A stretch of 51,821 nucleotides of DNA, from sequence record KC710998; one strand, given 5' to 3'. The notes below the pieces were generated by a model. The model was not told the origin of the DNA. It made no database searches and worked only from the letters and a program-made list of their open reading frames with translations. The first letter of the stretch is position 1. Every line of letters begins with the position of its first letter. Made by a program: the position numbers and the translations under genes. Below, piece after piece: positions 2,859-48,908 of this stretch. The DNA comes from Shigella phage pSf-1.

Positions 2859-4541
2859 ATGATTCCAAACATTGAAAAGCAAATATCAGCACTTGGTGAA
2901 GCGGTAATTAAATCCATTCAGGAGCGATTCACTGTTGGCGATATTGTGCCTTACCCTTACCAGTGCGTTGCATACGCTGAGATCGCAAAGCGTATGAAAA
3001 ATTATGAGCATCCATTCTTTGTTAAAGCGTCCGTATCGGCTGGCAAAACATTGGTGTTTGCAATGGTTGCTCACCAGTGCCGGAAAATGGGCTTGAAAAT
3101 GATGGTCCTTGCTCGCCAGGCTGAGATTGTGGGTCAGGATTCTGAAGAGATAACAAATCTTGGTGTGCCGAACTCCATCTATTGTGCAGGACTGAAGACA
3201 AAAAGCGCATACTTTCCGATCGTTGTTGGTTCTGAGGGAACTGTAGTTAATGGACTGTTTAAAGCGCTTGGCGACTATGTTCCGCACGTTATCGGGATTG
3301 ACGAGTGTCACCAGGTGGATTGGGAAGACCTTGCCGACGCAATAGACAAAGACGAATCATTTTTGCAAATGACGACGAAGAAAGGCGAAAAAGTACCAAA
3401 TCCAGATTATGACATAACAAAGGGAAGCAGGAACAGAAATACAGAGTTCCTGATTGGTGAAGATGGCTTGCCAATGGAGGGAACAGGCCGCACACAATAC
3501 ACTGTCATTATCATGGAAATGATGCGACGTTGCAGGAAAGCATATGGCCATGAACTGCGCATATTTGGCATGACTGGATCGGAGTTTCGCGGCGTAGTCC
3601 CGATCCTGGTAGAAGACAAAAAACAAAAAGGATTCTGGCGTGAACAGGTTACTAATATTGACACCAACTACCTGATCAAATTCGGTTCTGTTGTGCCAAC
3701 AAATTTTGGCGACGTTGGCGATCTAGGGTATGACCTTTCAGAGTTTGAGGCATCCAGCGAGGATGGCGTTGCAGACTTTGACGCTAAAACGCTTCGTAGG
3801 ATGGAACAAAAAATTCATGAAGAAGCGACCATGACAAAGCGCATCATGGCAAAAGTTCACGAGATCTGTAAAAACCGCAACGGCGTACTTGTGACATGTG
3901 CAGGAGAAAGGCATTGCAAAGAGGCAGCGGCAGCGTTGCCACCTGGAACTACTTACAGGATCATTACTGGTAAGACTGGCGACAATCAGCGCAAGGAGTG
4001 GTTGAGGGAAGCATACGAAGGGAAGGTAAAATACATCTTCCAGGTTCAGGCGCTAACAACTGGCGTTAACGTTCCGTTTTGGGATACGTCGGTTATATTG
4101 CGTAAGATTGGATCTCTTACGTTGCTGATTCAGCTTTTAGGGCGCGGAATGCGACTACTTAAGAAGTGGCATAAGGAGCAAGGATTCCAGAAAGATGATC
4201 ATCTCGTCATGGATTTTTCAGGAACGATGGACGAGTTAGGGGAACTTTATTTTGATCCGATACTGGAACAGGCGCAACATCAGAAGCGATTCAGGAACGG
4301 TAAAGATCCGAAGCCTTGTCCTGTTTGCGGAACTCTTAATAGCTATTATGCTCGTCGTTGTATGCACGTAGACGAAAACGGCAACAGATGCGAGTGGTTC
4401 TTTAAATTCAGGACATGCGATGATCAGATTGACCCGCGCACTAAAAAGATTATTCATCGCGGTTGTGGAACGAAAAATGATATTGCGGCCAGGGTGTGCA
4501 GACATTGCGACATGTCATTGATTGACCTAACGAGAAGTTGA
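2859..4541 (+). CDS. SF2 (DEAD/DEAH-type) DNA helicase with C-terminal zinc ribbons
   Basis: Walker A VSAGKT, GIDECHQ (DExH box), C-terminal CPVCG...CRHC; start chosen at ATG 2859 downstream of promoter cassette (track ORF starts 2793). Confidence 0.7.
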   Translation: MIPNIEKQISALGEAVIKSIQERFTVGDIVPYPYQCVAYAEIAKRMKNYEHPFFVKASVSAGKTLVFAMVAHQCRKMGLKMMVLARQAEIVGQDSEEITNLGVPNSIYCAGLKTKSAYFPIVVGSEGTVVNGLFKALGDYVPHVIGIDECHQVDWEDLADAIDKDESFLQMTTKKGEKVPNPDYDITKGSRNRNTEFLIGEDGLPMEGTGRTQYTVIIMEMMRRCRKAYGHELRIFGMTGSEFRGVVPILVEDKKQKGFWREQVTNIDTNYLIKFGSVVPTNFGDVGDLGYDLSEFEASSEDGVADFDAKTLRRMEQKIHEEATMTKRIMAKVHEICKNRNGVLVTCAGERHCKEAAAALPPGTTYRIITGKTGDNQRKEWLREAYEGKVKYIFQVQALTTGVNVPFWDTSVILRKIGSLTLLIQLLGRGMRLLKKWHKEQGFQKDDHLVMDFSGTMDELGELYFDPILEQAQHQKRFRNGKDPKPCPVCGTLNSYYARRCMHVDENGNRCEWFFKFRTCDDQIDPRTKKIIHRGCGTKNDIAARVCRHCDMSLIDLTRS

Positions 4542-4903: not shown

Positions 4904-5309
4904 TAAAGGCGATTATCTGGAGTTTTACGAAAGAGATCCGACGGATACGCTAAAAGAGGAATCACACCAGATTGGGGCGTTTCAATGGTTAACTTATGCT
5001 CATCCTGAATTTCTTGCCTGGCATACGAAAAATGAGGGAGAAAAGGGTATCGCTACCGCAATGATGGATCAGCAAGCTGGACTCGTTAAGGGCGTAAGTG
5101 ATTTTATCATCCTGATTGGATTAAAAGGCCGTTACCCATTCGCGGCTATTGAGATGAAACGCGTCAATAAGTCTGGCAAGGGCAAGGCTTCACCAGTCAG
5201 CAAGGAGCAAAAAGCCTTCTTGCGCCGTGTGCGTGAGCTTGGCGGATTCGCTGCCGTAACATACGGATATAAGCAATTCATGATCGCGGTAGAATACATG
5301 ATGAAATAG
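4890..5309 (+). CDS. VRR-NUC domain nuclease (PD-(D/E)xK)
   Basis: KGVSDFIIL...IEMKR motif pattern typical of VRR-NUC; ATG 4890 with AAGGA RBS. Confidence 0.6.
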   Translation: MAITDKGDYLEFYERDPTDTLKEESHQIGAFQWLTYAHPEFLAWHTKNEGEKGIATAMMDQQAGLVKGVSDFIILIGLKGRYPFAAIEMKRVNKSGKGKASPVSKEQKAFLRRVRELGGFAAVTYGYKQFMIAVEYMMK

Positions 5310-5349
5310 CACTTTTTGTTAAAACAGGCGCGAAGGATTGCGCCATAAT
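5306..5349 (+). promoter_or_regulatory. conserved promoter cassette (ATAGCACTTTTTGTTAAAAC + hairpin spacer + CATAAT)
   Basis: motif begins at stop codon TAG of upstream gene; spacer GGCGCGAAGGATTGCGCC is an inverted repeat. Confidence 0.55.
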
Positions 5350-6088: not shown

Positions 6089-6329
6089 CATGCAAAAAGA
6101 AAGAAGCGTTTATTTAAATGAAACTGGCGAATGGTTGTTATTTCGCGCTATGGTTTGCGAAGCGATTGATAAAAACGAGTTCGTAAAACCGCTATTAGGT
6201 TGCGATCCGTGGGAGTTTACAAGCGCGCTTGATATGAGTTTTGAGGAAACAAGAAAACTACCGCTTGAAAAATGGCATGAGCAGATCGGTAAAGACTTGC
6301 AAGAGTTTTACGAATCCGCGTCAAAATAG
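6089..6329 (+). CDS. hypothetical protein
   Basis: ATG 6089 with GGAG RBS; ends in TAG that is part of next promoter motif. Confidence 0.45.
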
Positions 6330-6370
6330 CACTTTTTGTTAAAACGCCCGGCCTTGTGTCGGGCATAATT
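6326..6370 (+). promoter_or_regulatory. conserved promoter cassette
   Basis: ATAGCACTTTTTGTTAAAAC + GCCCGGCCTTGTGTCGGGC hairpin + ATAATT. Confidence 0.55.
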
Positions 6371-6401
6371 TTTTCATCAAAACGAACAAGAGGAAAATAA
6401 A

Positions 6402-9512: not shown

Positions 9513-9543
9513 TTTTAAAATCCTCATATTCGTTTCGATGAAA

Positions 9544-9588
9544 CAAATATACCGATACGAGATCGGGAGTTTTAACAAAAAGTGCTAT
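9544..9588 (-). promoter_or_regulatory. conserved promoter cassette (minus strand)
   Basis: reverse-complement motif GTTTTAACAAAAAGTGCTAT, 17 nt spacer with CCGAT/ATCGG inverted repeat, TATATT, CATCGAAACGAA leader. Confidence 0.55.
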
Positions 9589-9705
9589 TCAATACGCTTT
9601 ACAGTAACCAACAAAACGCCGTCCTCATCACACAAATTATGCTCTGATATATCAAACGCTCGCATGTCAGAATGAATGAGCGTTAACATTGCGTGCATGA
9701 AGTCG

Positions 9706-10113
9706 TCATGTGAGATTGAACTTACGGCGCAGAACTTCAATATTTTGTCTATTAGCATTTGACGTAAACAATTCTTCATCGCTCATTTCTCCGATCCTTA
9801 AAACATCCCTTACCCATTCGTTTTGCATACCTTCCAGACTGTAAAGTTCAAACGAGAAAGGTCGATTTGCAGACCCTTTCTTACACCAGAACTTTCCACC
9901 AACTCCATCAAGATAACCAGCGGTCATCATTCTTGCGCAAAACTCTTTTGAAACGGCGGTTGCAAACATTCTCGGCGTAAATCCTGCGGCCCTTGCGAGC
10001 CGCTCACATTCTCTATGCTGAAATATAAATTTTGCGATATGTTGACGTGTAAACCATTCGAATGACTCACACCAGCGATACAGATCCAAGATAAACAAAA
10101 TGTTACCTCCCAT
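9706..10113 (-). CDS. hypothetical protein
   Basis: ORF track; downstream of HNH gene in same operon. Confidence 0.35.
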   Translation of the reverse strand: MGGNILFILDLYRWCESFEWFTRQHIAKFIFQHRECERLARAAGFTPRMFATAVSKEFCARMMTAGYLDGVGGKFWCKKGSANRPFSFELYSLEGMQNEWVRDVLRIGEMSDEELFTSNANRQNIEVLRRKFNLT

Positions 10114-10615
10114 GATTGCAGTGATATTTTAGTTCGTTTTCTTTTGATCTTCTTGCGCAAGCCGCATCAAATATAGTTTTAAAATATCCAATACAAAATG
10201 TTTTTCCTAAAACTCCTATTTGTGCATAATACAGTCCATCTTTAGTTATTGTAACCCCAGTTAATCCAGTTTTGTTTCTTTTGTTTTTTGATAAGTTTTT
10301 TTGATTATCTTTCTTTCTAACAAGTCTTAGATTTTCTATCCTGTTGTCGTCGCGAATGTGGTTAATGTGATCAATCTCATATCCTTCTAGTATAGCGCCG
10401 TTATGCATTTCCCATATTATCCGATGCGCCAAAAATCTCCTTTTATTTATGTTTAATAATATATAACCAGATTCTAAATCCTTACATCCTGCAATCTTAC
10501 CAGAATATTGAGTGTTACATTTGCTCATTATTCTTTCGCATGAGAAGTGGCTTAATGGCCTGGTGCGCCATATAAGCGCACCATTTGAATATGTAAAATA
10601 ATCATGCCAATTCAT
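10103..10615 (-). CDS. HNH homing endonuclease with AP2-like DNA-binding domain
   Basis: HNH motif EIDHINHIRDDNRIENLRLV...N; AP2-like segment GVTITKDGLYYAQIGVLGKTFCIGYF; GGGGTAA RBS. Confidence 0.65.
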   Translation of the reverse strand: MNWHDYFTYSNGALIWRTRPLSHFSCERIMSKCNTQYSGKIAGCKDLESGYILLNINKRRFLAHRIIWEMHNGAILEGYEIDHINHIRDDNRIENLRLVRKKDNQKNLSKNKRNKTGLTGVTITKDGLYYAQIGVLGKTFCIGYFKTIFDAACARRSKENELKYHCNHGR

Positions 10616-10619
10616 AAAA

Positions 10620-12203
10620 TTACCCCAGCAATGTTGGATTTACGAAAACAACGCCATTAATCACGCAAATATAGTTTCTTTCCTCAAGCATCGGAAGCAG
10701 TTGCGTTTCCATTCGCTTCATTACTCCAGCCTGACCAACAAACGGCTTAACTTTTCGTGCTGCCTCATATATAGCGCGAACATTCAATATCCCCTTATTA
10801 GCCTTGCCGTGTCGAGTAATGATCTCGATTAGTTTACCCATTTCAGCATCATCACCAGCGTAGCCAGAAGCGTTGGCGGCGCTAATGTATGTTTTGCTCA
10901 ACTCGCTAAACATCAGTAGTGCTTCCTGAACGGTTTCAACCTCAATCTCTTTCGACTTTTGAGGGTATCCGCCAGGGTTAAACCAATTGCGGATAGTGTG
11001 CAAAACCGAAGCAATCCTGATCACCTGCTTATCCATTTTTCCAAGCGCACCGCGCAGCATTGTATGCGAATACTTTCCGCCATCGGCAAGGTGCGGTTCC
11101 ATTTCCTGACGAGCCATGTTAAGAACTCGCATTGCTGATTTGCTGATCTTAAGCTGGATGTTTGATTCACTCATGATGTTATGGATCAGCTTAAAATATT
11201 GACTTTTCAGTTCTCCATCAACAGGCTCATAAGTCGAATCACCGTTATCATCAACAAACTTTCGACGACCTAAAAATGATTCCTCACGCACAAGCAAATA
11301 ACGCTCACTTACACCGATACCGCGCGATCCTGCATCCATGATGGCATTGATTGTTTCATCCTGGGCAATTACCGCCATACAGCCAAGAGCTTTAAAACTC
11401 ATATTGTTGTCAGCGTTTGCACGAGCTATAGAAACATGACCGTGATCCCATGCTTTTAATACAAGTTCGCTGTTGGTTTTACGTTCACTATTGGCATATG
11501 TCAGACCTAAAAGGCTGTTAATACTCGTTGCCTCGTCTGAAATTACAGCAAAGTTACCCTGGCGATTATTGATTCTTGCAAGTCCTTCCGGCGTGGTGTC
11601 GGACACAGGGAAAACTATGTCACACATCTTTTCCAGTTTTTCTTCCAGATCTTCTTTCTCCTGGTACAGAGATTCCATATCAGCGCCGGAGCGCTCGCTT
11701 TTCATCTCTTTTGCAAGACCTGCCAACTTTGCCTGAATCTTTTTTCTTTCCTTCTTTCGCTGATCGTTAATTCTTTCCACTTCTGCAACCATTGGAGCAA
11801 GTGCCAAGCTGTTAACGGCAGATTTACCAGTTGATGGAGGCTGGCTTGTAACAACGTACAGAGCGGTTGGTTGATCCGTTCCGTGATACTCAACAGTGAA
11901 GCGTCCAAGCATTGCAGCAGACACGCATCCGATAAAATGCATATATGCCGATGATTCAGGGAACTGAACTGATCGAGCAATGTTGCGCGCCAACTTGCCA
12001 ACAATATCAACATCATTGCCAAGAGAAATTACAGGGTAGCGATCGTTTCCGTTATTAACATCATTAACCTCACCCCAAAAGCTGGACGATTGACGGTATC
12101 CGTTTGCCTGAATGGACACGCGCACCGGAGACAATCCTTGTGCATCAGCTAATTCGATAATTTGTTTTGGTGTTAGTTTGTTGGTTTCAAACGAAAAATT
12201 CAT
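10620..12203 (-). CDS. DUF3987-like P-loop ATPase (putative replicative primase-helicase-associated protein)
   Basis: Walker A-like PPSTGKS, Walker B-like AVISDEAT; start at MNFSFETNK (ATG 12203, AAAGGAG RBS) downstream of promoter cassette. Confidence 0.5.
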   Translation of the reverse strand: MNFSFETNKLTPKQIIELADAQGLSPVRVSIQANGYRQSSSFWGEVNDVNNGNDRYPVISLGNDVDIVGKLARNIARSVQFPESSAYMHFIGCVSAAMLGRFTVEYHGTDQPTALYVVTSQPPSTGKSAVNSLALAPMVAEVERINDQRKKERKKIQAKLAGLAKEMKSERSGADMESLYQEKEDLEEKLEKMCDIVFPVSDTTPEGLARINNRQGNFAVISDEATSINSLLGLTYANSERKTNSELVLKAWDHGHVSIARANADNNMSFKALGCMAVIAQDETINAIMDAGSRGIGVSERYLLVREESFLGRRKFVDDNGDSTYEPVDGELKSQYFKLIHNIMSESNIQLKISKSAMRVLNMARQEMEPHLADGGKYSHTMLRGALGKMDKQVIRIASVLHTIRNWFNPGGYPQKSKEIEVETVQEALLMFSELSKTYISAANASGYAGDDAEMGKLIEIITRHGKANKGILNVRAIYEAARKVKPFVGQAGVMKRMETQLLPMLEERNYICVINGVVFVNPTLLG

Positions 12204-12230
12204 TGGTGATAACTCCTTTTTGATGCGGCA

Positions 12231-12274
12231 ATAATACCGCACCAATGCTACCCGCATTTAACAAAAAATGCTAT
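12231..12274 (-). promoter_or_regulatory. conserved promoter cassette (minus strand, variant ATAGCATTTTTTGTTAAATG)
   Basis: motif + 19 nt spacer + TATTAT upstream of DUF3987 gene. Confidence 0.5.
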
Positions 12275-12487
12275 TTGATCCGCTCTATGCTAACTAAGAT
12301 TTTTTCTGGTTCCTTTGCACTATGGCAATGCGCGGTTACAGAATCAACAAAATCAAAGTAAAGTGATTTGTGATATGAGAATCCAATCAGCCACCCAACC
12401 ATCGTTTTCTTTATTGGCCTGACTATATCGCATGATTGAAGGTTTTTGTTGCTGAATGAGTCACCTTATAGCGATATTCAGCCTTGA

Positions 12488-12874
12488 TCACTTATACATA
12501 GCCTCAAACAAATGACAGCCACCAGCGGAAAATCCAACTTCTTCGCGGTACAGCGTCCAGCGGTCGCCAGCTTCATCAAACACATAACCAGCAACAGCGC
12601 CAAGTGCTCGGCCTTGCTCAATCTGGTAGCGCTTTCCTTCTTTGAAATGCTTTTTACAAGGGATCTTGTGATCTACAAAGGTGCATTTAATTGTTTTTGT
12701 CTTGATATGACGATAGTCAGACTCAACAGCGTTTTGCCACTTGCTACCCTTTGTAATGCTCTTTACCTGGAATTGTTCCAACTCGATCACATCATCGCTA
12801 CCAGCGATTTTTTCGTATACAACTTTATAACGACCGTTCATCAAAACGTTGGTTTTATTGCAGATAACTTTCAT
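12488..12874 (-). CDS. hypothetical protein
   Basis: ORF track; AAGGAG RBS; downstream of promoter cassette. Confidence 0.45.
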   Translation of the reverse strand: MKVICNKTNVLMNGRYKVVYEKIAGSDDVIELEQFQVKSITKGSKWQNAVESDYRHIKTKTIKCTFVDHKIPCKKHFKEGKRYQIEQGRALGAVAGYVFDEAGDRWTLYREEVGFSAGGCHLFEAMYK

Positions 12875-12904
12875 CGTTTATTTCTCCTTTCGTTTCGGTG
12901 AAGT

Positions 12905-12949
12905 GATTATGCCAGGTTTTGCACCTGGCGTTTTAACAAAAAGTGCTAT
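12905..12949 (-). promoter_or_regulatory. conserved promoter cassette (minus strand)
   Basis: 44-nt core identical to the plus-strand cassette at 17701..17744 (includes hairpin GCCAGGTGCAAAACCTGGC). Confidence 0.55.
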
Positions 12950-13655
12950 TTTGCGTTTGCTTCAAAGACGGCGCGAGCAAAACCGCGCGGTGTGAGGGAG
13001 CGGATCATCTTTGTGCGAGATGATTTTCCGCCAGTTTTGGCCCAACCAGGATTATCCTTGTCATCCTCTTTAGGAAGGATTGTTGCGCGCGGAGGAATAA
13101 CAAATCCGTTTCCAGTCCAAAGGCATGTTTTCTTAAAGTACCGATCCCGCGCCGGAATAATATCAGGGAAGTCGGGATGCTTATCATCTTCCGGCAGATA
13201 GCAGCATAATCGCACGGATGGAACGTATAATCAGGCTTACGCCATAACGTTGACAGCTTGCCTACAGGATTTTCGATCATGTAAGGAACGCCGAAATAAT
13301 CAGCGATATGCGCCGCGATTCTGCAAGTGTCGGCGGCCTCATCCTGGAACGCTGGATTCTCAAGGCGTTTTTTGGTCCAATGGCGAGATCCGCTATTTGC
13401 AAGGTCAGTGCACGGCGGAAATGCCATAATGAAATCAGGCTTGCCCCAATTTTCAAGTTTTGCGGTATATTTGAATAGCTCATCAATCCACACATTAACG
13501 TAAAAAATATTATCATGGATTATGCGCACTGATTGGTAGTCGCCATGATCTGCATCATCGTAATTAAAGCAAATGCATTTATATCCAGCATCAGCCCAAT
13601 CTTTAACGGCTTTACCAGATCCATCAAACAAAGAGAATATTAAACCTTTATACAT
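12946..13655 (-). CDS. C5-cytosine DNA methyltransferase-like protein, apparently frameshifted
   Basis: motif I LFDGSG, motif IV FPPCTDLANSG (PC dipeptide), motif VI ENPVG; coding continues in another frame (track ORFs 13005..13655 and 12946..13215). Confidence 0.45.
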
Positions 13656-13888
13656 TTCATCACCTCAAAACGGAAAGCATCTGGGCAGTTCGGATCAAAA
13701 TTGCAACCACAATCATTAACAATCATAGTTGGATCTGCAAATGCAGCGCCGCATTCATGGTCCATATCCATTTCACCCAACGCATCATCAAGCGTCCTGA
13801 TTTTATATGCGACTTCAAGCGCGGCCTCTTTATTCAGTCCGGCATCTTCTGCTTTTTGCAGTCGCTCAAAAAAACCGTCTTGACTCAT
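13640..13888 (-). CDS. hypothetical Cys-rich protein
   Basis: ORF track; Cys-containing CGCNFDPNCPD segment; overlaps start of methyltransferase-like gene. Confidence 0.4.
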   Translation of the reverse strand: MSQDGFFERLQKAEDAGLNKEAALEVAYKIRTLDDALGEMDMDHECGAAFADPTMIVNDCGCNFDPNCPDAFRFEVMKCIKV

Positions 13889-13998
13889 TTAATAAACTCC
13901 TTAACAACAGCAAGAATAATCACAAGCCCAGCAGTAAAAACAAGCAAACCGACAAGGCCAATCATAACACTAAATAAAACATCAAGCGTCTTAATCAT
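13885..13998 (-). CDS. small hydrophobic peptide (about 37 aa)
   Basis: ATG..TGA minus-strand ORF MIKTLDVLFSVMIGLVGLLVFTAGLVIILAVVKEFIK, single predicted TM helix; stop overlaps next start (ATGA). Confidence 0.3.
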   Translation of the reverse strand: MIKTLDVLFSVMIGLVGLLVFTAGLVIILAVVKEFIK

Positions 13999-14010
13999 TT
14001 ATTCACCATT

Positions 14011-14036
14011 GATAAAATGGGAGGCGGAAACCTCCC
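14011..14036 (-). terminator. putative terminator (minus strand)
   Basis: perfect GGGAGG/CCTCCC hairpin followed on minus strand by ATTTTATC. Confidence 0.4.
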
Positions 14037-14045
14037 ATTGGTTAA

Positions 14046-14273
14046 TCATACAGCCTTCCAGCTTTCAATAAACATGCTGTTTTCTTCCAGCAGTTTAATC
14101 AATTCTTCGCGCGTGTATTTGCGGATTTTACTACCTGGATGTGAGCCAACAACAAACACACCTTTACCACTCGTGATTGTTAACTGGTTGATTCCGCAAG
14201 ATTTATCCATCTTAATTGCGACGCGGTGATGTGCATCAACAGTGTTCATGATGTTAGTAACTTTAGCTTTCAT
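14046..14273 (-). CDS. hypothetical protein
   Basis: start at MKAKVTNIM with GAGGAT RBS; track ORF 14046..14336. Confidence 0.45.
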   Translation of the reverse strand: MKAKVTNIMNTVDAHHRVAIKMDKSCGINQLTITSGKGVFVVGSHPGSKIRKYTREELIKLLEENSMFIESWKAV

Positions 14274-14303
14274 TATGCAATCCTCATTATATTTGGTGTG
14301 ATA

Positions 14304-14346
14304 ACTATACCAGGTTTGAGAAATATTGTTTAGCAATTCGTGCTAT
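14304..14346 (-). promoter_or_regulatory. conserved promoter cassette (minus strand, variant ATAGCACGAATTGCTAAAC + TATAGT)
   Basis: same variant upstream half as cassettes at 19381 and 21896. Confidence 0.5.
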
Positions 14347-14447
14347 CAGTTGAAATAGCTATGGCGCTTTGCTCGCTTGCCTTCTCCGCCATAATGATCA
14401 TTTGCAACAGCTACCATCCAGGAATTATGGAATATTATTAGCTTCAT

Positions 14448-14729
14448 CTAATTAATGCCAACAACGTTAAAACTTACAGCTTTTGTTGCGCTAAATACAT
14501 ACGCTTCAACAGCATCACCAAATACACGAATTTTTCCATAGCCGTACTGCGCATTCATATTGCGCCAAACCGTCCTGTTAGAACAGAACGCGTTACCAGT
14601 CTTGATAAGATTATCCATCTCTTTTCTTAGGTCATGATAATCAAGCCAGAATCTATAGGCGCGTTGTTTAATGAGTTTCGCCTTGATTGCTTCGGCTGAG
14701 TTTTTAAAATCGCTGTTTTTGTATGCCAT
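14448..14729 (-). CDS. hypothetical protein
   Basis: ORF track; start overlaps stop of upstream gene (translational coupling). Confidence 0.45.
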   Translation of the reverse strand: MAYKNSDFKNSAEAIKAKLIKQRAYRFWLDYHDLRKEMDNLIKTGNAFCSNRTVWRNMNAQYGYGKIRVFGDAVEAYVFSATKAVSFNVVGIN

Positions 14730-14923
14730 TACACAACCTCCATAATAGTATTGAATCCACGCAGTTTGAAAGAGTTTCCATGTTTAACAACGTTCCATGT
14801 CAGGCCGGAGTGATACGCAACCATATCCTCAAGATCAATTGTGATGATAGCGCCTTTCTTAAAGATTCCTTTCTCGTGAGTGGTGTCACGCTGTACAACT
14901 TTAACATCAACTTGATTTTCCAT
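14729..14923 (-). CDS. hypothetical protein
   Basis: ORF track; GGA RBS in conserved leader. Confidence 0.45.
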   Translation of the reverse strand: MENQVDVKVVQRDTTHEKGIFKKGAIITIDLEDMVAYHSGLTWNVVKHGNSFKLRGFNTIMEVV

Positions 14924-14954
14924 TTTTAAATCCTCGTTCGTTGTCGATGCGCTT

Positions 14955-14998
14955 AATATACCAATCAGAGGCGCATCGGTTTTAACAAAAAGTGCTAT
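14955..14998 (-). promoter_or_regulatory. conserved promoter cassette (minus strand)
   Basis: motif + spacer, TATATT enclosed by 8-bp inverted repeat CGATGCGC/GCGCATCG. Confidence 0.55.
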
Positions 14999-15285
14999 TC
15001 AACAACAGATCCAGTTAAAGAGATAAGTGCTCTTGTGATCTTGTGTCTGCGATACTGACGCGCAACAACCGGAAGATTTTCACCGCTTTGATGACCGAAG
15101 CAGATCGGCAACTCACCCTCAAGAGAGCGGAAGCCGCCAAATTCAAGATCCCGCACTGGATTTGAGCGCCACGCTTCAATAAATCCGCGTTCGTCACGCG
15201 TGATATAGCGGTATATGTTAGGGAGGGGCAATTGTATCCCCTCAAAATCCACGGTATCGGTATAGCTGTAAAACTTAGAACTCAT
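14995..15285 (-). CDS. hypothetical protein
   Basis: start at MSSKFYSY overlapping stop of upstream small gene; track ORF 14995..15402. Confidence 0.4.
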   Translation of the reverse strand: MSSKFYSYTDTVDFEGIQLPLPNIYRYITRDERGFIEAWRSNPVRDLEFGGFRSLEGELPICFGHQSGENLPVVARQYRRHKITRALISLTGSVVE

Positions 15286-15427
15286 AATCAACAACTCCAA
15301 ACTCGTTGACGATTTGCGCCTTATAGAAGCCGCCATTTTTCGCAAGGTTGTAGCATGCCGCCACAGTTTCAAATTCGCGCACTTCCGGCTGGCTGTTTTC
15401 ATGTTCCCAGGTAATCAGAGTAACCAT
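15275..15427 (-). CDS. hypothetical small protein (50 aa)
   Basis: ATG after conserved leader CATCGACAACGAAAGCGAGGA; MVTLITWEHENSQPEVREFETVAACYNLAKNGGFYKAQIVNEFGVVDYEF. Confidence 0.4.
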   Translation of the reverse strand: MVTLITWEHENSQPEVREFETVAACYNLAKNGGFYKAQIVNEFGVVDYEF

Positions 15428-15460
15428 TTTCAAATCCTCGCTTTCGTTGTCGATGTGTGT

Positions 15461-15504
15461 AATGTACAGGAATACGAGGATTGAGTTTTAACAAAAAGTG
15501 CTAT
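15461..15504 (-). promoter_or_regulatory. conserved promoter cassette (minus strand)
   Basis: motif + 18 nt + TACATT + CATCGACAACGA leader. Confidence 0.55.
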
Positions 15505-15771
15505 TTAGTCCAGGAGTTCGATTTCGCGCTCGCCAGTTAACGGATCTTTGATCCAGAATCCGAGCGCCTCACCGTAAATACCGCCATAGAATCCAAGCGC
15601 CGACAGATCCTCACCTTTAACAAATACCAGATCCCCGCTACGGCTTACGTGAGATACGTTAACGATAACCGGAAAGGTGCGATCCTTAAATGCAGGCCGC
15701 ATGGCGTAACACCCGTTATTGAGCAAACGTGCTTTGCGCTTAACTGGAATAGGTGCATTGATTCGCGCCAT
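15505..15771 (-). CDS. hypothetical protein
   Basis: track ORF 15505..15810, start moved to MARINAPIP. Confidence 0.4.
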   Translation of the reverse strand: MARINAPIPVKRKARLLNNGCYAMRPAFKDRTFPVIVNVSHVSRSGDLVFVKGEDLSALGFYGGIYGEALGFWIKDPLTGEREIELLD

Positions 15772-15784
15772 CTTTATTTCTCCT

Positions 15785-16030
15785 TCATTGTTGATCGTGT
15801 TTAACGGCAATCAGAACACCACAGGACTCGTTAATGAATTTTGCCATTCGCTTATCATCACCAGCAGGGATTAGCGCATTACACTCGCGTTTGCTACTGA
15901 ATACCGTCACTTTATGGAATGATGCGAACGGCATCGACGGGAACTCTACTGTTTGCGTCAAGATCCGCAATCCCATCTTTTTGGCCCTTACCTGGGCCTC
16001 AGCGAGTTCAAAATCCACTTCATTAATCAT
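15785..16030 (-). CDS. hypothetical protein
   Basis: ORF track. Confidence 0.4.
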   Translation of the reverse strand: MINEVDFELAEAQVRAKKMGLRILTQTVEFPSMPFASFHKVTVFSSKRECNALIPAGDDKRMAKFINESCGVLIAVKHDQQ

Positions 16031-16299
16031 TTCTTGATCTCCTCGGCAATAAACTTCAGGACTTTGCGCAAAAACACTTCATTATTGATGGTCGCTGGCA
16101 ATTCCTCTTTCACTTCTTGCGGCAGGTAAACGTTGCCATGCCAGGTTAAGCAATCGTAGTTGATACGATAAGAGCAAAGCCACTCGCAATCGTTATCCGC
16201 TTCCCAAATGCAGAGTTGCAGAACATCGCCAAAATTCTCAACAGTCAGGTCCAGACCGTGACGCTTTGCAAAGTTGAAAGTGGTTTTGCTGATGTTCAT
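16027..16299 (-). CDS. hypothetical protein
   Basis: start MNISKTTF after conserved leader; track ORF 16027..16371. Confidence 0.45.
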   Translation of the reverse strand: MNISKTTFNFAKRHGLDLTVENFGDVLQLCIWEADNDCEWLCSYRINYDCLTWHGNVYLPQEVKEELPATINNEVFLRKVLKFIAEEIKK

Positions 16300-16337
16300 T
16301 TGCTTTCTCCTGATGGGTATCTCGTTTCGATGCGTGT

Positions 16338-16381
16338 AATGTACCCGATCAGGATGATTCAGTTTTAACAAAAAGTGCTAT
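16338..16381 (-). promoter_or_regulatory. conserved promoter cassette (minus strand)
   Basis: motif + 18 nt + TACATT + CATCGAAACGAG leader. Confidence 0.55.
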
Positions 16382-16974
16382 TTCTCAACTGGCGATTATT
16401 CCAACTATTCCATTAATCAGGAATAACAAGAATAACTCATTCGCGATCACCTGGATTGTGAGACTTTGAGTTTGGTCAATTTTAATCAAGTGATTAACTT
16501 TTTGTGTGGAGGGGATAGAGAAACGCGGCCCTCTTGCGTCCTTTCCGGCAATCCTGGCGCGCGCAATTGTTATCTTCTGTTATCGCTGTTATGCGTGTTA
16601 TTCCGGCGTGGAATCGCATAACAAAAAATAACAAGAAAAATCCATATAACATACTAAAAAATAAGGATTATTTATTTATATGTATCTATAAATTATTATC
16701 TGTTATGTGTGTTATGTGGGCGTATTGATACCAGATGTATTTTGGTGATTGTATGTGGTTGTGTGTTGGCTTGTATGTATATATGGGGTGGGGCGTATCC
16801 GCGCATTTTTAGATAACACGCAAAAACAACATTGATTTATAAGGAAAAGAACATGAATTTTGTTTCGTTCTTGAAACACAACATTGAAAAACTGCCAATA
16901 ACAATTAAAAACAGTTGACACGCCAGGAATGGTAAATGATAATGCAGCCACTGAATCACGAGGGGGGATAAAGC
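16382..16974. repeat. noncoding AT-rich island with TGTTAT/ATAACA iterons and TG-rich repeats (candidate origin or regulatory hub)
   Basis: four direct TGTTAT copies at 9-10 bp phasing (16568-16601), three ATAACA copies (16618-16651), TGTTATG x2 (16701-16715), GTGATTGT/TGTATGT repeats; no ORF of 60 aa or more. Confidence 0.6.
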
Positions 16975-17292
16975 ATGAGTGAGTCTGTGTTTACAAATGA
17001 GCTTCGCAAGGTTGCAATTGCTCTAGCCACTGGAGTACATGAATCTATCCAGATACCTGAAAGATGGGTAAGGCAGCACCTGGAGGGCAAGAAGTCAGCC
17101 AGCAACGCCGGATCATATCTGCGTCAGATTATGGGGCGCGTTCCAGAAGTGGCGGAGAAGGGGCGAGTTTCAGTATCAAAGAAACCTTACGGCCCTGATA
17201 GCGAATACTTCGGCGAAAATTACTTTGATGTGTCGATTGTTAATGCGCCGAATCGCAGGGTTTACAACAAGGCCGCGCTTGAGAAGCTGTAG
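16975..17292 (+). CDS. hypothetical protein (first gene of plus-strand early cluster)
   Basis: ATG with GAGGGGGGA RBS; a second frame stays open past the stop (possible indel). Confidence 0.45.
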   Translation: MSESVFTNELRKVAIALATGVHESIQIPERWVRQHLEGKKSASNAGSYLRQIMGRVPEVAEKGRVSVSKKPYGPDSEYFGENYFDVSIVNAPNRRVYNKAALEKL

Positions 17293-17445
17293 CGAAAGCA
17301 AAGCGCCAGGTTGCTGAGTCAATGCTTAAAGTCTCACCAAGCCTAGCGAACTACTCGCCAGATGAATATGAAACACTTGCTAAGGCGATCGCAGATTTTC
17401 ACGCGATCATTAAAGAAACATACCTTAACGATGAGGAACAATAAA

Positions 17446-17694
17446 ATGAGCAAACTTACGCTTGATGAACTGATGGAAAAAATTGATGAAGTGGGCTTTA
17501 ACAAGCTGGTTGATTTCCACTTGACCGCATGTGAAATCACCGCGCAGGAGTTTAGCGACATGCTATCTGATGCGAGCGAGATTTACACAAGCCTATGCGA
17601 AAGAGAAATCAAAGTCATTGAAATTGAGATGCCTGGAGATCCGGTATTCGCAAGGCTTGTGGCTGCATTCGATGAGGAGAATGTTGGACTCTGA
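17446..17694 (+). CDS. hypothetical protein
   Basis: ATG 17446 with GAGGAA RBS; track ORF 17362..17694. Confidence 0.45.
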   Translation: MSKLTLDELMEKIDEVGFNKLVDFHLTACEITAQEFSDMLSDASEIYTSLCEREIKVIEIEMPGDPVFARLVAAFDEENVGL

Positions 17695-17700
17695 CCGGAA

Positions 17701-17745
17701 ATAGCACTTTTTGTTAAAACGCCAGGTGCAAAACCTGGCATAATA
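17701..17745 (+). promoter_or_regulatory. conserved promoter cassette
   Basis: ATAGCACTTTTTGTTAAAAC + GCCAGGTGCAAAACCTGGC hairpin + ATAATA + CATCGAAACGAG leader. Confidence 0.55.
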
Positions 17746-17776
17746 ACCTCATCGAAACGAGATTGAGGAAAACAAA

Positions 17777-17962
17777 ATGGCACGTCGCATCACCAAAGAC
17801 CTTAAAGTCCTGAACAAAGAAAACGTAGTTAAAATCCTGGTTATCTGGGGATACAACGAAGAAACAGCAAAGCAGAAGGTAGAGGCAGGTTATGACATGG
17901 CTGTAAAAGCAATGCCAAACGACGACGCCAAAGGTATTGCAAACTATGTAGCTTTCTTTTAA
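17777..17962 (+). CDS. hypothetical protein
   Basis: ORF track; GAGGAA RBS. Confidence 0.45.
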   Translation: MARRITKDLKVLNKENVVKILVIWGYNEETAKQKVEAGYDMAVKAMPNDDAKGIANYVAFF

Positions 17963-17977
17963 TTAGCAGGTGAGTAA

Positions 17978-18163
17978 ATGAAAACGAAATTAGTCCATAA
18001 ATCAGAAATCAAGATCGGCGATACTGTGATTCACAACGGTGAGCTTAGAACGGTTGGCAAAGAGTCAATAAGCCACGATGAATTTATGGGGATCTTGTTG
18101 TTCGGTGACTCTTATCGTCTTGGTTACAAGATGGTTGAGCTTGTGGAAGAGGTAAAATTCTAA
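17978..18163 (+). CDS. hypothetical protein
   Basis: ORF track; AGGTGAG RBS. Confidence 0.45.
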   Translation: MKTKLVHKSEIKIGDTVIHNGELRTVGKESISHDEFMGILLFGDSYRLGYKMVELVEEVKF

Positions 18164-18208
18164 ATAGCACTTTTTGTTAAAACTCGAAAACGATAACCAG
18201 GCATAATA
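18164..18208 (+). promoter_or_regulatory. conserved promoter cassette
   Basis: motif + 19 nt + ATAATA. Confidence 0.55.
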
Positions 18209-18261
18209 AATCACATAGGGCGGCACGGCGTCGCCCAAAAAACCAATCAGGAGAAAGCACC

Positions 18262-19155
18262 ATGTTAAAACTTGCTGACATTAAATTCCCGATCACTTTC
18301 GAATCTCGTGGCGTTGGTCATTACATTTTTACCGATGAGAAAACATGCCATAACGTTTGGTTGCACAGCGATAAGCCAAGCCCATCAACAATGGAGATTC
18401 AGCACTTCATTGATGCGCATAATCAGCACTACAACTCAATCCGTGACTACGGCTACGCAATGCCAGGCTACACATGCTTGCACTACAAGCCATATAAGGG
18501 CCAGGTGTTACCAGTGCGCTCACCGGAACGCGCAGAGATTCCGATGGTCAATATGAAAACCTGCGACTACAAAAAGCTGTGGTGCTTAAGTCTGGAAAAT
18601 ATCAAGTATCCGATCACGTTCCACACGACTGGTAAGTCAACGATTCGCTACACATCGCGCGACAATGGCGTTTATAGCGATGGTACGAAATCAGAGTTGA
18701 AAGTTGATTTCTTTGTCAATGGTCACAACAAATTCAATCCGCACAACGAAGAGGATAAAGTGTATTACGTGGAAGACATTACAAAACACTTGTTTGGAGA
18801 AACTCCATTCGGCGGCGGGAAGACGGCAATTCAGAAAATCATTGGCGAGGAGATCCATAAAGCGGCTGTCGAAATGAAAGCGCCTGGAGGCTGGCGTATT
18901 GACAAGAGCGCCTTTGCCTATCAAGAAATCGTAACGCAGGGCGCGATTGAAGATATGCCAGTTAAAGCCACGCTAAAAGGAGTCCGGCTTGATGACGGCA
19001 GTTGGTATGAATTAACGGCTACACCAAAGACGATCGAAATTCATGATGATGTTGTTATCCTTCTGCTTCACTACGGCGGCACTAAAAACCGGACTGTTGC
19101 AGGTGAGATCAGCATCAAGCGCGGAACGATGGTTAAGTGGAAGGTGAAGATTTGA
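18262..19155 (+). CDS. hypothetical protein with internal tandem duplication
   Basis: two similar segments (ADIKFPITFESRGVGHY... and ENIKYPITFHTTGKSTI...); AGGAGA RBS. Confidence 0.5.
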   Translation: MLKLADIKFPITFESRGVGHYIFTDEKTCHNVWLHSDKPSPSTMEIQHFIDAHNQHYNSIRDYGYAMPGYTCLHYKPYKGQVLPVRSPERAEIPMVNMKTCDYKKLWCLSLENIKYPITFHTTGKSTIRYTSRDNGVYSDGTKSELKVDFFVNGHNKFNPHNEEDKVYYVEDITKHLFGETPFGGGKTAIQKIIGEEIHKAAVEMKAPGGWRIDKSAFAYQEIVTQGAIEDMPVKATLKGVRLDDGSWYELTATPKTIEIHDDVVILLLHYGGTKNRTVAGEISIKRGTMVKWKVKI

Positions 19156-19231: not shown

Positions 19232-19384
19232 ATGGCTACCTGGATTTTGCTGATTCTTATGATTGATGGCGGCGTTGACCATATCGAAATGAATAGCCAG
19301 CAATCTTGCATTGAGGCACGAGAGCAGATCAAGAACAACAACAGGTTTTATGCGTACACTCACACGCTATGTATTAAGAAATAG
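19232..19384 (+). CDS. small membrane protein (50 aa)
   Basis: MATWILLILMIDGG... hydrophobic N-terminus; GAGGTGAGAG RBS; stop TAG lies in next promoter motif. Confidence 0.35.
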   Translation: MATWILLILMIDGGVDHIEMNSQQSCIEAREQIKNNNRFYAYTHTLCIKK

Positions 19385-19423
19385 CACGAATTGTTAAAAC
19401 TCAAATGTGGGGCCAGGTATAAT
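19381..19423 (+). promoter_or_regulatory. conserved promoter cassette (variant ATAGCACGAATTGTTAAAAC + TATAAT)
   Basis: TATAAT lies in loop of GGCC...GGCC inverted repeat. Confidence 0.55.
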
Positions 19424-19453
19424 GGCCTCACTTTCAACGAAGGGGATAAAACG

Positions 19454-20443: not shown

Positions 20444-20601
20444 CCTGGTTACTTTTAATCTTTGTCACAAGTTACAACTCCGCCGCTATTGAATCGCAAG
20501 AGTTCCACGGCGAATCAAGGTGTCAGGAAGCACGAAAACAAGTTGTTCTCCACATGTCAGATAGTGGGAAAGATGTAACAGCGCTATGCGTTCGTAAGTA
20601 G
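20440..20601 (+). CDS. small protein with N-terminal hydrophobic segment (53 aa)
   Basis: ATGA overlap with phosphatase stop; stop TAG lies in next promoter motif. Confidence 0.3.
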   Translation: MTWLLLIFVTSYNSAAIESQEFHGESRCQEARKQVVLHMSDSGKDVTALCVRK

Positions 20602-20641
20602 CACTTTTTGCAAAAATAGATTGTCGGGCTTGCGGTATAGT
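20598..20641 (+). promoter_or_regulatory. conserved promoter cassette (variant GTAGCACTTTTTGCAAAAAT + TATAGT)
   Basis: TATAGT in loop of GGGCTT/AAGCCC inverted repeat; CCATCGACAACAAACGAGGA leader. Confidence 0.5.
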
Positions 20642-20672
20642 AAGCCCATCGACAACAAACGAGGATTAAATC

Positions 20673-21308: not shown

Positions 21309-21899
21309 ATGAAACGCGACATTATCATTCTTAACGGGCCGCCAGGAGTTGGCAAAGATACGCTTGCGGCATACTTAACGGGCCATCGTTACGCAGCGGT
21401 TAAAGCGTCATTTAAACAGCCTATGTTCGATATTGCATTCTCCATGCTTGGCGTTTACCGATATGACGAGTTCATTGATCTGTATAACGACCGCGAGCAG
21501 AAAGAAAAGCCTCAAGCAATCTTGCAAGGTAAGTCGCCGCGACAATTCATGATCTGGATTAGTGAAGAAGTCATGAAGCCAGCTTTTGGCAAGCAATATT
21601 TCGGAAATCGCATGGTTGAGCAAGTACACGAGATGTACAGAGATTTGGCTGTTGTAATTAGTGATGGCGGATTCCCTGAAGAAATCAAGCCGCTCGTTAA
21701 GGCAGGCCATGAGGTGCACATTTGCCGACTGCATCGCGAAGGCTTCACGTTTGATGGCGATTCACGAAACTATATTGACCTGAGCGGATACCATCACCGA
21801 GTCAATCATTACGACTTCACAATGATTGATGGCGAGCCAGAAAAGACTGTTGAAGAGATCATCAAAACGGTGCAGTGGAAACACACAAAGATTGAATAG
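21309..21899 (+). CDS. P-loop nucleotide/polynucleotide kinase
   Basis: Walker A GPPGVGKDT near N-terminus; start ATG 21309 with GGAG RBS (track ORF from 21294). Confidence 0.55.
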   Translation: MKRDIIILNGPPGVGKDTLAAYLTGHRYAAVKASFKQPMFDIAFSMLGVYRYDEFIDLYNDREQKEKPQAILQGKSPRQFMIWISEEVMKPAFGKQYFGNRMVEQVHEMYRDLAVVISDGGFPEEIKPLVKAGHEVHICRLHREGFTFDGDSRNYIDLSGYHHRVNHYDFTMIDGEPEKTVEEIIKTVQWKHTKIE

Positions 21900-21939
21900 C
21901 ACGAATTGCTAAAAGCGGGGCGCAATGCCTCGCTATAAT
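21896..21939 (+). promoter_or_regulatory. conserved promoter cassette (variant ATAGCACGAATTGCTAAAAG + TATAAT)
   Basis: TAG of kinase stop codon inside motif. Confidence 0.55.
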
Positions 21940-22950: not shown

Positions 22951-23238
22951 ATGGCTAAAAGCAATCGTAAAATGTTGATTAACGCATTCGAAAAGGCGGC
23001 GCTTGAGCGTGGTTGGAATGACTCATTTCACACGGCAAACTGTATCCGCCGTTACGGATTCAAGAATTGCCGCTCATGGGCGCGTGAAATGGCTTCATGG
23101 TATGATCTTGATGCGCATTACCTTGATATGGATTGCGCCCTGGTTGAAATGATTGAGCAGGCCGCATTAGAGGATCGACCATTAACGCAATCTGATTTTG
23201 ACGATTTTGTTCGCGATGAAATCTATTACATGAGCTAA
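22951..23238 (+). CDS. hypothetical protein
   Basis: AAGGAGGAAA RBS preceded by UUCG-loop hairpin. Confidence 0.45.
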   Translation: MAKSNRKMLINAFEKAALERGWNDSFHTANCIRRYGFKNCRSWAREMASWYDLDAHYLDMDCALVEMIEQAALEDRPLTQSDFDDFVRDEIYYMS

Positions 23239-23280
23239 TAGCACTTTTTGTTAAAACTTCCGCGAGGGCATTTGTTAAAG
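23238..23280 (+). promoter_or_regulatory. conserved promoter cassette (with TAAAGT -10-like)
   Basis: motif overlaps TAA stop/TAG; CATTGAAGCGAAACAGAGGA leader. Confidence 0.5.
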
Positions 23281-23313
23281 TGTCCTCATTGAAGCGAAAC
23301 AGAGGAAATCAAA

Positions 23314-35086: not shown

Positions 35087-35092
35087 TCACAA

Positions 35093-35114
35093 GGGGCGTT
35101 GCGCCCCTTTTTTT
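35093..35114 (+). terminator. rho-independent terminator
   Basis: GGGGCG-ttg-CGCCCC + T7. Confidence 0.65.
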
Positions 35115-41019: not shown

Positions 41020-41046
41020 GTCGCGCGTTGCGCGGCTTTTTTTTTG
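41020..41046 (+). terminator. rho-independent terminator
   Basis: GTCGCGC-gtt-GCGCGGC + T9. Confidence 0.6.
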
Positions 41047-44547: not shown

Positions 44548-44572
44548 AAGGGGGCTTTTGCCCCCTTTTTTA
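44548..44572. terminator. bidirectional rho-independent terminator between convergent genes
   Basis: GGGGGC-tttt-GCCCCC flanked by A-run and T-run. Confidence 0.65.
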
Positions 44573-47321: not shown

Positions 47322-47402
47322 ACAGCACAAATAGCTAAACAAATGAAAAATGCGGTGTTATAATTCACCGCATAAGTTAACAGCAAGAGTAAGGAAATAA
47401 AC

Positions 47403-48383: not shown

Positions 48384-48390
48384 TTGACAT

Positions 48391-48412
48391 GGGGCGCTTG
48401 CGCCCCTTTCTT
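48391..48412 (+). terminator. putative terminator
   Basis: GGGGCG-cttg-CGCCCC followed by TTTCTT. Confidence 0.45.
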
Positions 48413-48885: not shown

Positions 48886-48908
48886 AAAGGGGCATTACGC
48901 CCCTTTTT
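48886..48908 (+). terminator. rho-independent terminator
   Basis: GGGGC-attac-GCCCC + T5. Confidence 0.55.

Follow-up and report, generated by a model that had tools for sequence, protein, structure and literature searches.

Predicted promoter cassettes with sense-strand stem-loops in Shigella phage pSf-1 and other T1-like phages

The 51,821-nucleotide sequence of Shigella phage pSf-1 (record KC710998; hereafter the window) is essentially the complete 51.8-kb genome of a T1-like phage (Drexlerviridae, Tempevirinae, Hanrivervirus). A 21-nt repeat in this genome is the upstream part of an intergenic cassette that also carries a predicted −10 element and a conserved leader, and most cassettes contain an RNA hairpin nested among these parts. 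The hairpins are a selected structural feature, are required to fold on the sense strand only, and are much commoner where a co-directional gene lies directly upstream. It is fairly probable that each cassette joins a terminator to a promoter, with a stem-loop that acts on the preceding gene, in the manner of the promoter-early stem-loop (PeSL) cassettes of T4-type phages. The cassettes are best filed as a PeSL-like promoter/stem-loop system in Drexlerviridae, with no new mechanism revealed. An earlier note on the window had drawn attention to inverted repeats in promoter spacers and to an identical 44-nt cassette on opposite strands; the phenomenon is wider than that note saw and belongs to the T1-like family, not to the window alone.

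The motif AATAGCACTTTTTGTTAAAAC has 23 matches in the window in a motif scan, each oriented with its flanking genes. A megablast search with positions 12000–18500 matched 173 phage records, and the closest relatives, at 92–95% identity, are the Escherichia phages damhaus, JakobBernoulli, herni, and phiE31-2, all of which belong to Drexlerviridae, Tempevirinae, Hanrivervirus. For a family-wide collection, IMG/VR was scanned for an exact 20-mer of the motif, and the 120 resulting loci were combined with four relatives and phage T1 (about 125 T1-like loci in total). This yielded 633–757 cassettes, 517–574 of them unique, which collapsed into 126 lineages (<60% identity at variable positions).

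In a logo built from 517 unique cassettes, strong conservation extended beyond the motif, which occupies cassette positions 1–21 (about −51 to −31 relative to the predicted start): G38 (86%), TATAAT at positions 40–45 (A41 and T45, 90% each), C51-A52, and then a leader, CATCGAAACGA, followed by a Shine-Dalgarno sequence and ATG. From this pattern, which is typical of a −10 element preceded by G at −14, we infer a start 7 nt downstream of the hexamer. The proposed layout of about 75 nt would thus run from the upstream stop codon through the 21-nt element (AATAGCACnnnTTGnTAAAAC), 17–18 variable nucleotides, the G at −14, and the TATAAT-like −10 to a 6-nt discriminator, a CA start, the leader, the Shine-Dalgarno sequence, and ATG; such cassettes would punctuate the early and accessory gene arrays. 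The annotated intergenic gaps in JakobBernoulli measure 71–78 nt, one cassette length, and in T1 the stop codon of the preceding gene is often a TAG or TAA within the motif. This leaves only the 17–18-nt "spacer" and the 6-nt discriminator free to vary, and in most cassettes both appear to have been moulded into a GC-rich stem-loop that reaches no further than −1, either with both arms in the spacer or with one arm on each side of the −10. In T1 (1449–1456, 2268–2275, 2829–2836, 3534–3541, and 4343–4363) and in cassettes generally, the stop is frequently the TAG of aaTAGcac or the TAA of TAAAA; two of the three frames are closed within the motif, and the ends of genes extend into the regulatory element.

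Positions 17–60 of each cassette were folded as RNA. A folding energy of −10 kcal/mol or better was reached by 68% of 574 unique cassettes and by 4% of shuffled sequences, and the mean minimum free energy was −11.7 kcal/mol compared with −4.9 kcal/mol in shuffles. Perfect stems of at least 5 bp within positions 20–41 occurred in 148 of 517 cassettes, as against 27 in shuffles and 6–17 in four control windows. Among the 126 lineages, with only the variable positions shuffled, 52% of natural sequences and 5.7% of shuffles reached −10 kcal/mol or better. The two halves of a cassette are matched to each other: when natural cassettes were compared with chimeras of 5′ and 3′ halves, the natural combination was better by at least 4 kcal/mol in 37 of 90 lineages and the reverse was found in none; the natural pairing was the single best of 21 in 31 of the 90 lineages (4.3 expected). 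The stems themselves are highly diverse, for example GGGGTT/AACCCC, GGGCTT/AAGCCC, AAGGCCA/TGGCCTT, and GGCGCT/AGCGCC. The suggestion that the palindromes have a structural role and are not one shared operator is thus borne out, because the stems are unlike in sequence from cassette to cassette and yet specifically complementary.

A transition in a Watson-Crick pair yields G·T or A·C with similar probability. Internal mismatches in otherwise perfect cassette stems are G·T rather than A·C by 105 to 9 among all unique cassettes and by 20 to 0 among lineage representatives, indicating that the requirement to fold applies to the sense strand alone. A symmetrical cruciform, in which both strands would be equally foldable and which the earlier note had offered as one structural role, is thereby excluded, as is an antisense RNA. 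Consistently, GNRA or UNCG loops are found in 8 of 36 cases on the sense strand and 2 of 36 on the antisense strand, and the better fold lies on the sense strand in 372 cassettes and on the antisense strand in 190.

The 3′ arms mostly end at positions 39–41 or 50–52, forming two main classes, at or shortly before the predicted start; the 5′ arm may begin anywhere in positions 18–37. A hairpin so placed is absent from the predicted transcript of its own cassette and present in transcripts arriving from upstream. Hairpins of −10 kcal/mol or better were found in 81% of cassettes preceded by a co-directional open reading frame (ORF; n = 420) and in 31% of the others (n = 77; p = 1e-12); with strict cassette criteria and lineage de-duplication the proportions were 69% and 25% (Fisher p = 6e-4). 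Within the window, cassette 2782 (+) lacks a hairpin, and the gene it faces is divergent. This association of hairpins with a co-directional gene upstream points to RNA that reads through from the preceding gene. The stem-loop would work as sense-strand RNA in such read-through transcripts, where it may end, attenuate, or 3′-stabilise the transcript of that gene. Since the hairpin is not in the cassette's own mRNA, each cassette would be a compact terminator-promoter joint that insulates small gene modules. Between the possible activities, attenuation or termination is favoured over pure 3′-end protection by analogy with precedent. In phage T1, four features annotated as rho-independent terminators coincide with hairpins of cassettes, and U-rich tails follow the hairpins of window cassettes 2293, 6325, 9569, and 27138.

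Several observations weigh against the terminator-promoter joint. An intrinsic terminator combines a GC-rich hairpin with an immediate U-tract, and the U-tract is present in a minority of cassettes only: there is no U-tract enrichment after the stems (T fraction 0.37 in the spacer class versus 0.32 in hairpin-less cassettes), and the common hairpin class is followed by AUCGAAACGA. The hairpins as a class therefore cannot work by canonical intrinsic termination, and "canonical terminators" is ruled out as a general description. Hairpin-less cassettes include several with a co-directional gene upstream (15485 and 18163). On the promoter side, the logo places TTGTTA/TTGnTA 21–22 bp and TTAAAA 18–19 bp from the −10 hexamer, and a gap of 21–22 bp between TTG and TATAAT is unlike a sigma-70 promoter; what the earlier note called a promoter spacer is therefore not a sigma-70 spacer. 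The −10 (TATAAT, preceded by G at −14) and the CA start stand out clearly, a canonical −35 is missing, and a simple sigma-70 scan of the window flags one cassette only. Literature searches found no start-site, 3′-end, or transcriptome data usable for T1-like phages. In a comparison by eye, the consensus sequences of sigma-54 (TGGCAC-N5-TTGC), sigma-32, and sigma-28 and the T4 MotA box (TGCTTtA at −30) were rejected as matches to the motif for misfits in spacing or sequence.

Two comparative tests of pairing also count on the negative side. Fixed-register covariation (pairs 22–27/35–40 and 28–33/46–51 in 90 lineage representatives) was absent: 43.0% of cells were paired compared with 41.8% after shuffling, and 83 of 500 shuffles scored as high. 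An all-against-all mutual-information scan showed no more than a weak excess on the i+j=79 antidiagonal, and the hairpin signal is present only when each cassette is folded individually. Fixed columns do not covary because the hairpin register differs between lineages, and a single homologous RNA structure for all cassettes was dropped for the same reason. Compensatory changes within orthologous lineages are few (10 versus 0–5 in slid controls). The comparison of spacer palindromes across relatives that the earlier note had called for thus gave no covariation in a fixed register and a small number of compensations, which are clear at two cassettes. At the seventh pair of cassette 17700 the window has T-A, three relatives have C-G, and two have T·T; orthologues of cassette 6325 show one double change from C-G to A-T and one change from G·T to A-T.

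The main rival keeps the same architecture and makes the hairpin a 3′-end protector or ribonuclease barrier instead of a terminator. Read-through RNA would be cut in the unstructured A-rich leader, and the hairpin would shield the upstream cistron from 3′ exonucleases or block RNase E from scanning into the next cistron. The lack of U-tract enrichment fits this proposal, as do the 3′ arms that end directly before the conserved unstructured leader (CAUCGAAACGA), and the sense-strand bias and upstream-gene association suit it as well as they suit termination; nothing in this analysis separates a protector from an attenuator. On the other side, some cassette hairpins are bona fide terminators with U-tracts, and a PeSL stem-loop lowered downstream lacZ expression as strongly as rrnB T1 (PMC2839356). 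Protection is a possibility to be taken seriously, though an unlikely one.

A DNA-level role has been considered in two forms. In the first, which we regard as doubtful, the 21-nt element, the stem-loop, and the −10 would constitute a new promoter class in which a sense-strand DNA hairpin presents or masks the −10, and contacts at −51 to −31 by a phage factor or the host RNA polymerase would replace −35 recognition. The cassette would then be a self-contained, horizontally mobile regulatory module, which could explain its presence without T1-like genes in Klebsiella phage KP15 (described below). A candidate factor, and a candidate reader of the 21-nt motif, is the 157-aa conserved protein encoded at 2296–2769 (−), which has a Cro/YdaS-like helix-turn-helix (Pfam slightly below threshold; phrog_2856 "transcriptional regulator", E 3e-78). 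The 3′ end of its gene falls in cassette 2293, and the hairpin there is a true terminator.

In the second form, a strand-specific hairpin or cruciform would expose the −10 as single-stranded DNA or tune its melting or supercoiling sensitivity, as in the early promoters of phage N4 and the single-strand promoters of plasmids. The commonest hairpin class, with the −10 in its loop and a 3′ arm ending exactly at −1, would suit such an element, the upstream element is unlike a normal −35, and G·T is the least destabilising mismatch in DNA as well. The 20:0 ratio of G·T to A·C nevertheless excludes a symmetrical cruciform; loops of 8–12 nt on stems of 5–8 bp extrude poorly from duplex DNA; and the position relative to the −10 is variable, with the −10 left outside in the spacer-only class, 5′ arms that start across positions 18–37, and no fixed-register covariation. 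That hairpins are rarer without an upstream co-directional gene is likewise unexpected for a promoter-intrinsic element, and this form is improbable.

A 5′-end hairpin on the cassette's own transcript, as the earlier note proposed, is probably wrong: the stems lie upstream of the predicted start (−10 at 40–45, CA at 51–52). For such a hairpin to stabilise the mRNA, transcription would have to start right after the motif, with TGnTAAAAC serving as an extended −10. T13-G14-n-T16-A17-A18-A19-A20 does resemble TGnTAAAA, and many 5′ arms begin at 28–30, about 7 nt past the motif. Position 21, the would-be −7, is however seldom T, and 66% of cassettes have C there; the downstream hexamer has classic −10 conservation (A41/T45 90%, G at −14 86%, CA at +1) that an RNA loop would not need; 5′ arm starts are spread over 18–37, with spacer-class stems beginning at 20–24, within or touching the motif; and the association with upstream ORFs is not predicted. 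We give this version little credence.

Terminators of antisense transcripts, in which the hairpin would be followed by GTTTTAAC on the opposite strand, are very improbable. The complement of the motif's 3′ end does place GUUUUA right after spacer-class hairpins, and perfect stems often have a similar antisense folding energy; a sense G·T is, however, an antisense A·C mismatch (20:0), the sense strand folds better (372 versus 190), and in the major hairpin class GTTTTA lies 7–10 nt away. The asymmetry of G·T and A·C rules out the combination of hairpin and GTTTTA. That the palindromes arose by chance, or are operators of a dimeric DNA-binding protein, has a negligible probability: short inverted repeats exist, and nothing further speaks for it, while the stem-loops are enriched 10- to 20-fold relative to shuffles and chimeras and the stem sequences are unrelated between cassettes, so that no operator is shared.

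The cassettes are also sites of recombination. The 44-mer ATAGCACTTTTTGTTAAAACGCCAGGTGCAAAACCTGGCATAAT occurs in exactly two copies without a mismatch, at 12906–12949 (−) and 17701–17744 (+), where chance would give none; the identical cassette on opposite strands is thus as the earlier note had it. The 17700 locus (A) carries A-type hairpins in relatives (GCCAGGcGCAAAgCCTGG or ..tGCAAAt..), and the 12930 locus (B) carries a distinct B-type hairpin, AAAAG-CCAGGTGTAAAAGCCTGG, in six relatives; only the phage of the window has the same A-type sequence at both. Of the two origins that had been put forward, duplication or gene conversion, this distribution indicates the second: locus B was converted by locus A, 4.7 kb away and inverted, in the phage's recent ancestry.

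Cassettes share 21–45 nt of near-identical sequence and therefore recombine. In a tally of the window against four relatives, about 10 of some 31 homology breakpoints between 9 and 24 kb lie in cassettes, which make up about 7% of that region; breakpoints include 14999/15424, 17698–9, 17745/18162, 19369–79, and 20599. Two modules, each consisting of one or two genes and one cassette, are missing from relatives (Table 1), and at base level each relative has a single hybrid cassette with its junction within the 21-nt motif. Whole gene modules thus come and go between relatives, and the junctions fall within the motif. The segment 16593–17698 between the divergent arms has an unrelated replacement in JakobBernoulli and phiE31-2, and its right border is the exact first base of cassette 17700.

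Within the window, the palindromes quoted in the earlier note are all present, at coordinates correct to a few bases, and are stable as RNA (−11.4 to −15.9 kcal/mol; z −3.1 to −5.1 versus shuffles). The −10 does lie in the loop of an inverted repeat at the two sites named, around TATATT and TATAGT (Table 1). The hairpin is wholly between motif and −10 in six cassettes (5305, 6325, 9569, 12930, 17700, and 21895), encloses or overlaps the −10 in seven or eight (2293, 12255, 14979, 19380, 20597, 23237, 47321, and 27138), and is lacking in about 9 of 23 (about 40%). That most cassettes have a spacer palindrome was consequently an overstatement, with 6 of 23 wholly in the spacer; that most have a hairpin is about right.

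Table 1. Cassettes, stem-loops, and cassette-bounded modules in the window (folding energies in kcal/mol; z relative to shuffles).
Feature	Coordinates	Strand	Details
Cassette A, motif AATAGCACTTTTTGTTAAAAC	17700–17720	+	Identical to the published TLS repeat consensus
Cassette A, stem-loop	17721–17739	+	GCCAGGT-GCAAA-ACCTGGC, 7 bp; −13.7, z −5.1
Cassette A, predicted −10 CATAAT	17739–17744	+	First base is the stem's last base; predicted start ~17751; ATG 17777
Cassette B, motif	12930–12950	−	Inverted copy
Cassette B, stem-loop	12911–12929	−	Identical to A; GCCAGGU-GCAAA-ACCUGGC; −13.7, z about −5
Cassette B, predicted −10 CATAAT	12906–12911	−	Predicted start ~12899; ATG 12874
Inverted duplication arm, 62 nt	12890–12951		95% match to 17699–17760; central 44 nt identical
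Gene module between two cassettes	15000–15423	−	ORF 14995–15402; missing from damhaus and phiE31-2
Two-gene module between cassettes 17700 and 18163	17746–18161	+	Genes 17777–17962 and 17978–18163; missing from phage A14b
Cassette 14979	14945–14999	−	Motif 14979–14999; stem CGATGCGC/GCGCATCG (14971–14978/14945–14952) around −10 TATATT (14955–14960)
Cassette 14979, RNA stem	14945–14978	−	CGAUGCGC...GCGCAUCG around TATATT; −14.6, z −3.5
Cassette 20597	20597–20647	+	Motif 20597–20617; stem GGGCTT/AAGCCC (20626–20631/20642–20647) around −10 TATAGT (20636–20641)
Cassette 20597, hairpin	20626–20647	+	GGGCUU...AAGCCC; −15.9, z −3.7; 3′ arm ends at −1
Cassette 5305	5305–5349	+	Hairpin 5327–5344, GGCGCGA...TGCGCC, between motif and −10 CATAAT (5344–5349); −11.4, z −4.2
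Cassette 6325	6325–6375	+	Hairpin 6346–6364, GCCCGG...UCGGGC, between motif and −10; −13.0, z −3.1; then ATAATTTTTTC, U-rich, terminator-like
Cassette 9569	9530–9589	−	Motif 9569–9589; hairpin CCGAT...ATCGG 9552–9566, then TATATTTGTTT; terminator-like by simple scan
Cassette 21895	21895–21939	+	Hairpin 21914–21934, with a G·U pair, adjoins −10 TATAAT
Cassette 19380	19380–19431	+	9-bp stem 19407–19431; −10 TATAAT (19418–19423) in loop and 3′ arm; −16.4, z −4.8
Cassette 23237	23237–23294	+	Hairpin 23257–23294 across −10 region; −17
Cassette 12255	12222–12275	−	Degenerate motif AATAGCATTTTTTGTTAAATG; strong hairpin overlapping −10 TATTAT; −19.4
Cassette 2293	2260–2313	−	Hairpin 2260–2288, then TTTTTT; −18.1; canonical intrinsic terminator nested in cassette, downstream of helix-turn-helix regulator gene
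Cassette 47321, degenerate	47321–47373	+	Stem GCGGTG/CACCGC, TATAAT in loop
Cassette 15485, hairpin-less example	15427–15505	−	
Further hairpin-less cassettes (starts)	2782; 18163	+	Hairpin-less class: −0.6 to −7.5, z about 0
Further hairpin-less cassettes (starts)	14327; 16362; 45814	−	As above

Other features of the window were noted. Genes run leftward from about 16.9 to 9.7 kb and rightward from about 17.0 kb. In the divergent region, upstream of ORF 16975–17292, lies a near-consensus sigma-70 promoter (TTGACA-17-GATAAT, 11/12; 16915–16943 (+)); the rightward arm may have its true immediate-early promoter here, separate from those of the cassettes. Cassette 18163 has a GC-rich stem-loop, GGGCGGCACGGCGTCGCCC, inside its predicted 5′ untranslated region (18215–18245 (+)), followed by AAAAAA and kept in relatives. 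An ORF at 10103–10615 (−) encodes an HNH endonuclease (PF13392, E 3e-19); the 516-bp segment that holds it is missing from all four relatives compared, with homology breaks at 10101/10618 and no cassettes at its borders, and is likely a homing-endonuclease insertion. Canonical terminators of the form AAGGGGCG..CGCCCCTTTTT, unlike the cassette hairpins, occur in the late region at 35091–35112, 41020–41041, 44548–44569, 48390–48411, and 48887–48908. A search of the whole window against Rfam 15 families gave no match at the gathering score.

The IMG/VR matches included Klebsiella phage KP15 (GU295964), a T4-like myovirus (Straboviridae, Slopekvirus). Its T1-type cassettes lie on the minus strand at 10010–10086 and 10386–10440 of the record and are annotated as "putative middle promoter". 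The complete, dexA-proximal cassette has a perfect 21-mer, a GGGGTA/TACCCC stem around TATAGT, and the leader ATCGAAAC; the second lacks one base of the motif and holds a true terminator in its spacer. The leader CATCGAAACGA, the predicted initial transcribed sequence (51–62 nt into cassettes, e.g. 17750–17760 and 14939–14949 (−)), is kept family-wide and in KP15. The KP15 genes flanking the cassettes had no tblastn match among the T1-like loci compared; the regulatory cassette alone appears to be shared between the phage families.

The elements of the window can be set beside four known systems. A 21-nt direct repeat with the consensus aaATAGCACnnnTTGnTAAAA is known from phage TLS and has also been recorded in T1, Rtp, and Rogue1, and the accessible text of the TLS report poses its function as an open question, naming a stoperator, an enhancer, or an UP element (PMC11447400). 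The TLS repeats have the same consensus, are intergenic, run along the direction of transcription, lie about 76 nt from the start codon, and fall into T and GAA subclasses; by these features, as given in the accessible text, the window motifs and the TLS direct repeats are the same elements. That text treats the 21-mer alone and does not describe a fixed −10/CA/leader module, stem-loops, or cassette-bounded gene shuffling (PMC11447400). No report that links the T1-family repeats with PeSLs or embedded stem-loops was found in the searchable literature. The present analysis places the published repeat in context, as the upstream element of a predicted fixed promoter-leader module that usually carries a sense-strand stem-loop, probably serving the preceding gene.

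Intrinsic terminators share with the cassette hairpins a GC-rich stem-loop, GNRA or UUCG loops, and a location directly 3′ of genes; they differ in that most cassette hairpins have no U-tract. The hairpin promoters of the phage N4 virion RNA polymerase also place an inverted repeat in a promoter and rely on strand-specific structure, but they have 5–7-bp stems, 3-nt loops, a fixed position, and a need for the phage virion RNA polymerase, whereas the cassettes here have 4–12-nt loops in variable positions. T1-like phages are described in the TLS report as having no RNA polymerase gene (PMC11447400).

The closest likeness is to the PeSLs of the T4-type phages RB49/phi1, PST, and nt-1, which mediate gene shuffling and of which one stem-loop terminated transcription in a lacZ assay (PMC2839356, PMC4122927). 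As in PeSLs, a repeated intergenic cassette extends from the upstream stop codon through promoter elements and a Shine-Dalgarno sequence to the start codon, and a stem-loop is built into the promoter, where it may separate the upstream element from the −10, overlap the −10, or immediately precede the start. G-T pairs, also highlighted in the PeSL papers, are found in the stems; the cassettes are concentrated among small accessory genes; and cassettes form the boundaries of indels and replacements that distinguish close relatives. In both, the stem-loop is interpreted as a terminator or attenuator of upstream transcription, an activity that here is predicted. A further mark of the T4-type PeSLs is the formation of encapsidated mini-circles by cassette recombination. 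The two sets differ in host family, here siphoviruses of the Drexlerviridae; in the upstream element, here a 21-nt motif with TTG 21–22 bp from the −10 and in PeSLs a consensus sigma-70 −35 with an AT-rich tract; and in the evidence for promoter and terminator activity, which in the present case is predicted from sequence. Since at least one T4-like phage, KP15, carries T1-type cassettes, the two sets may not be fully independent. As insulated, recombination-prone joints, the modules would allow small genes to be gained, deleted, or exchanged while the genes around them stay unaffected. By this likeness the PeSL principle would reach a second phage family, unrelated to the first, and the result should be useful in annotating and engineering Drexlerviridae.

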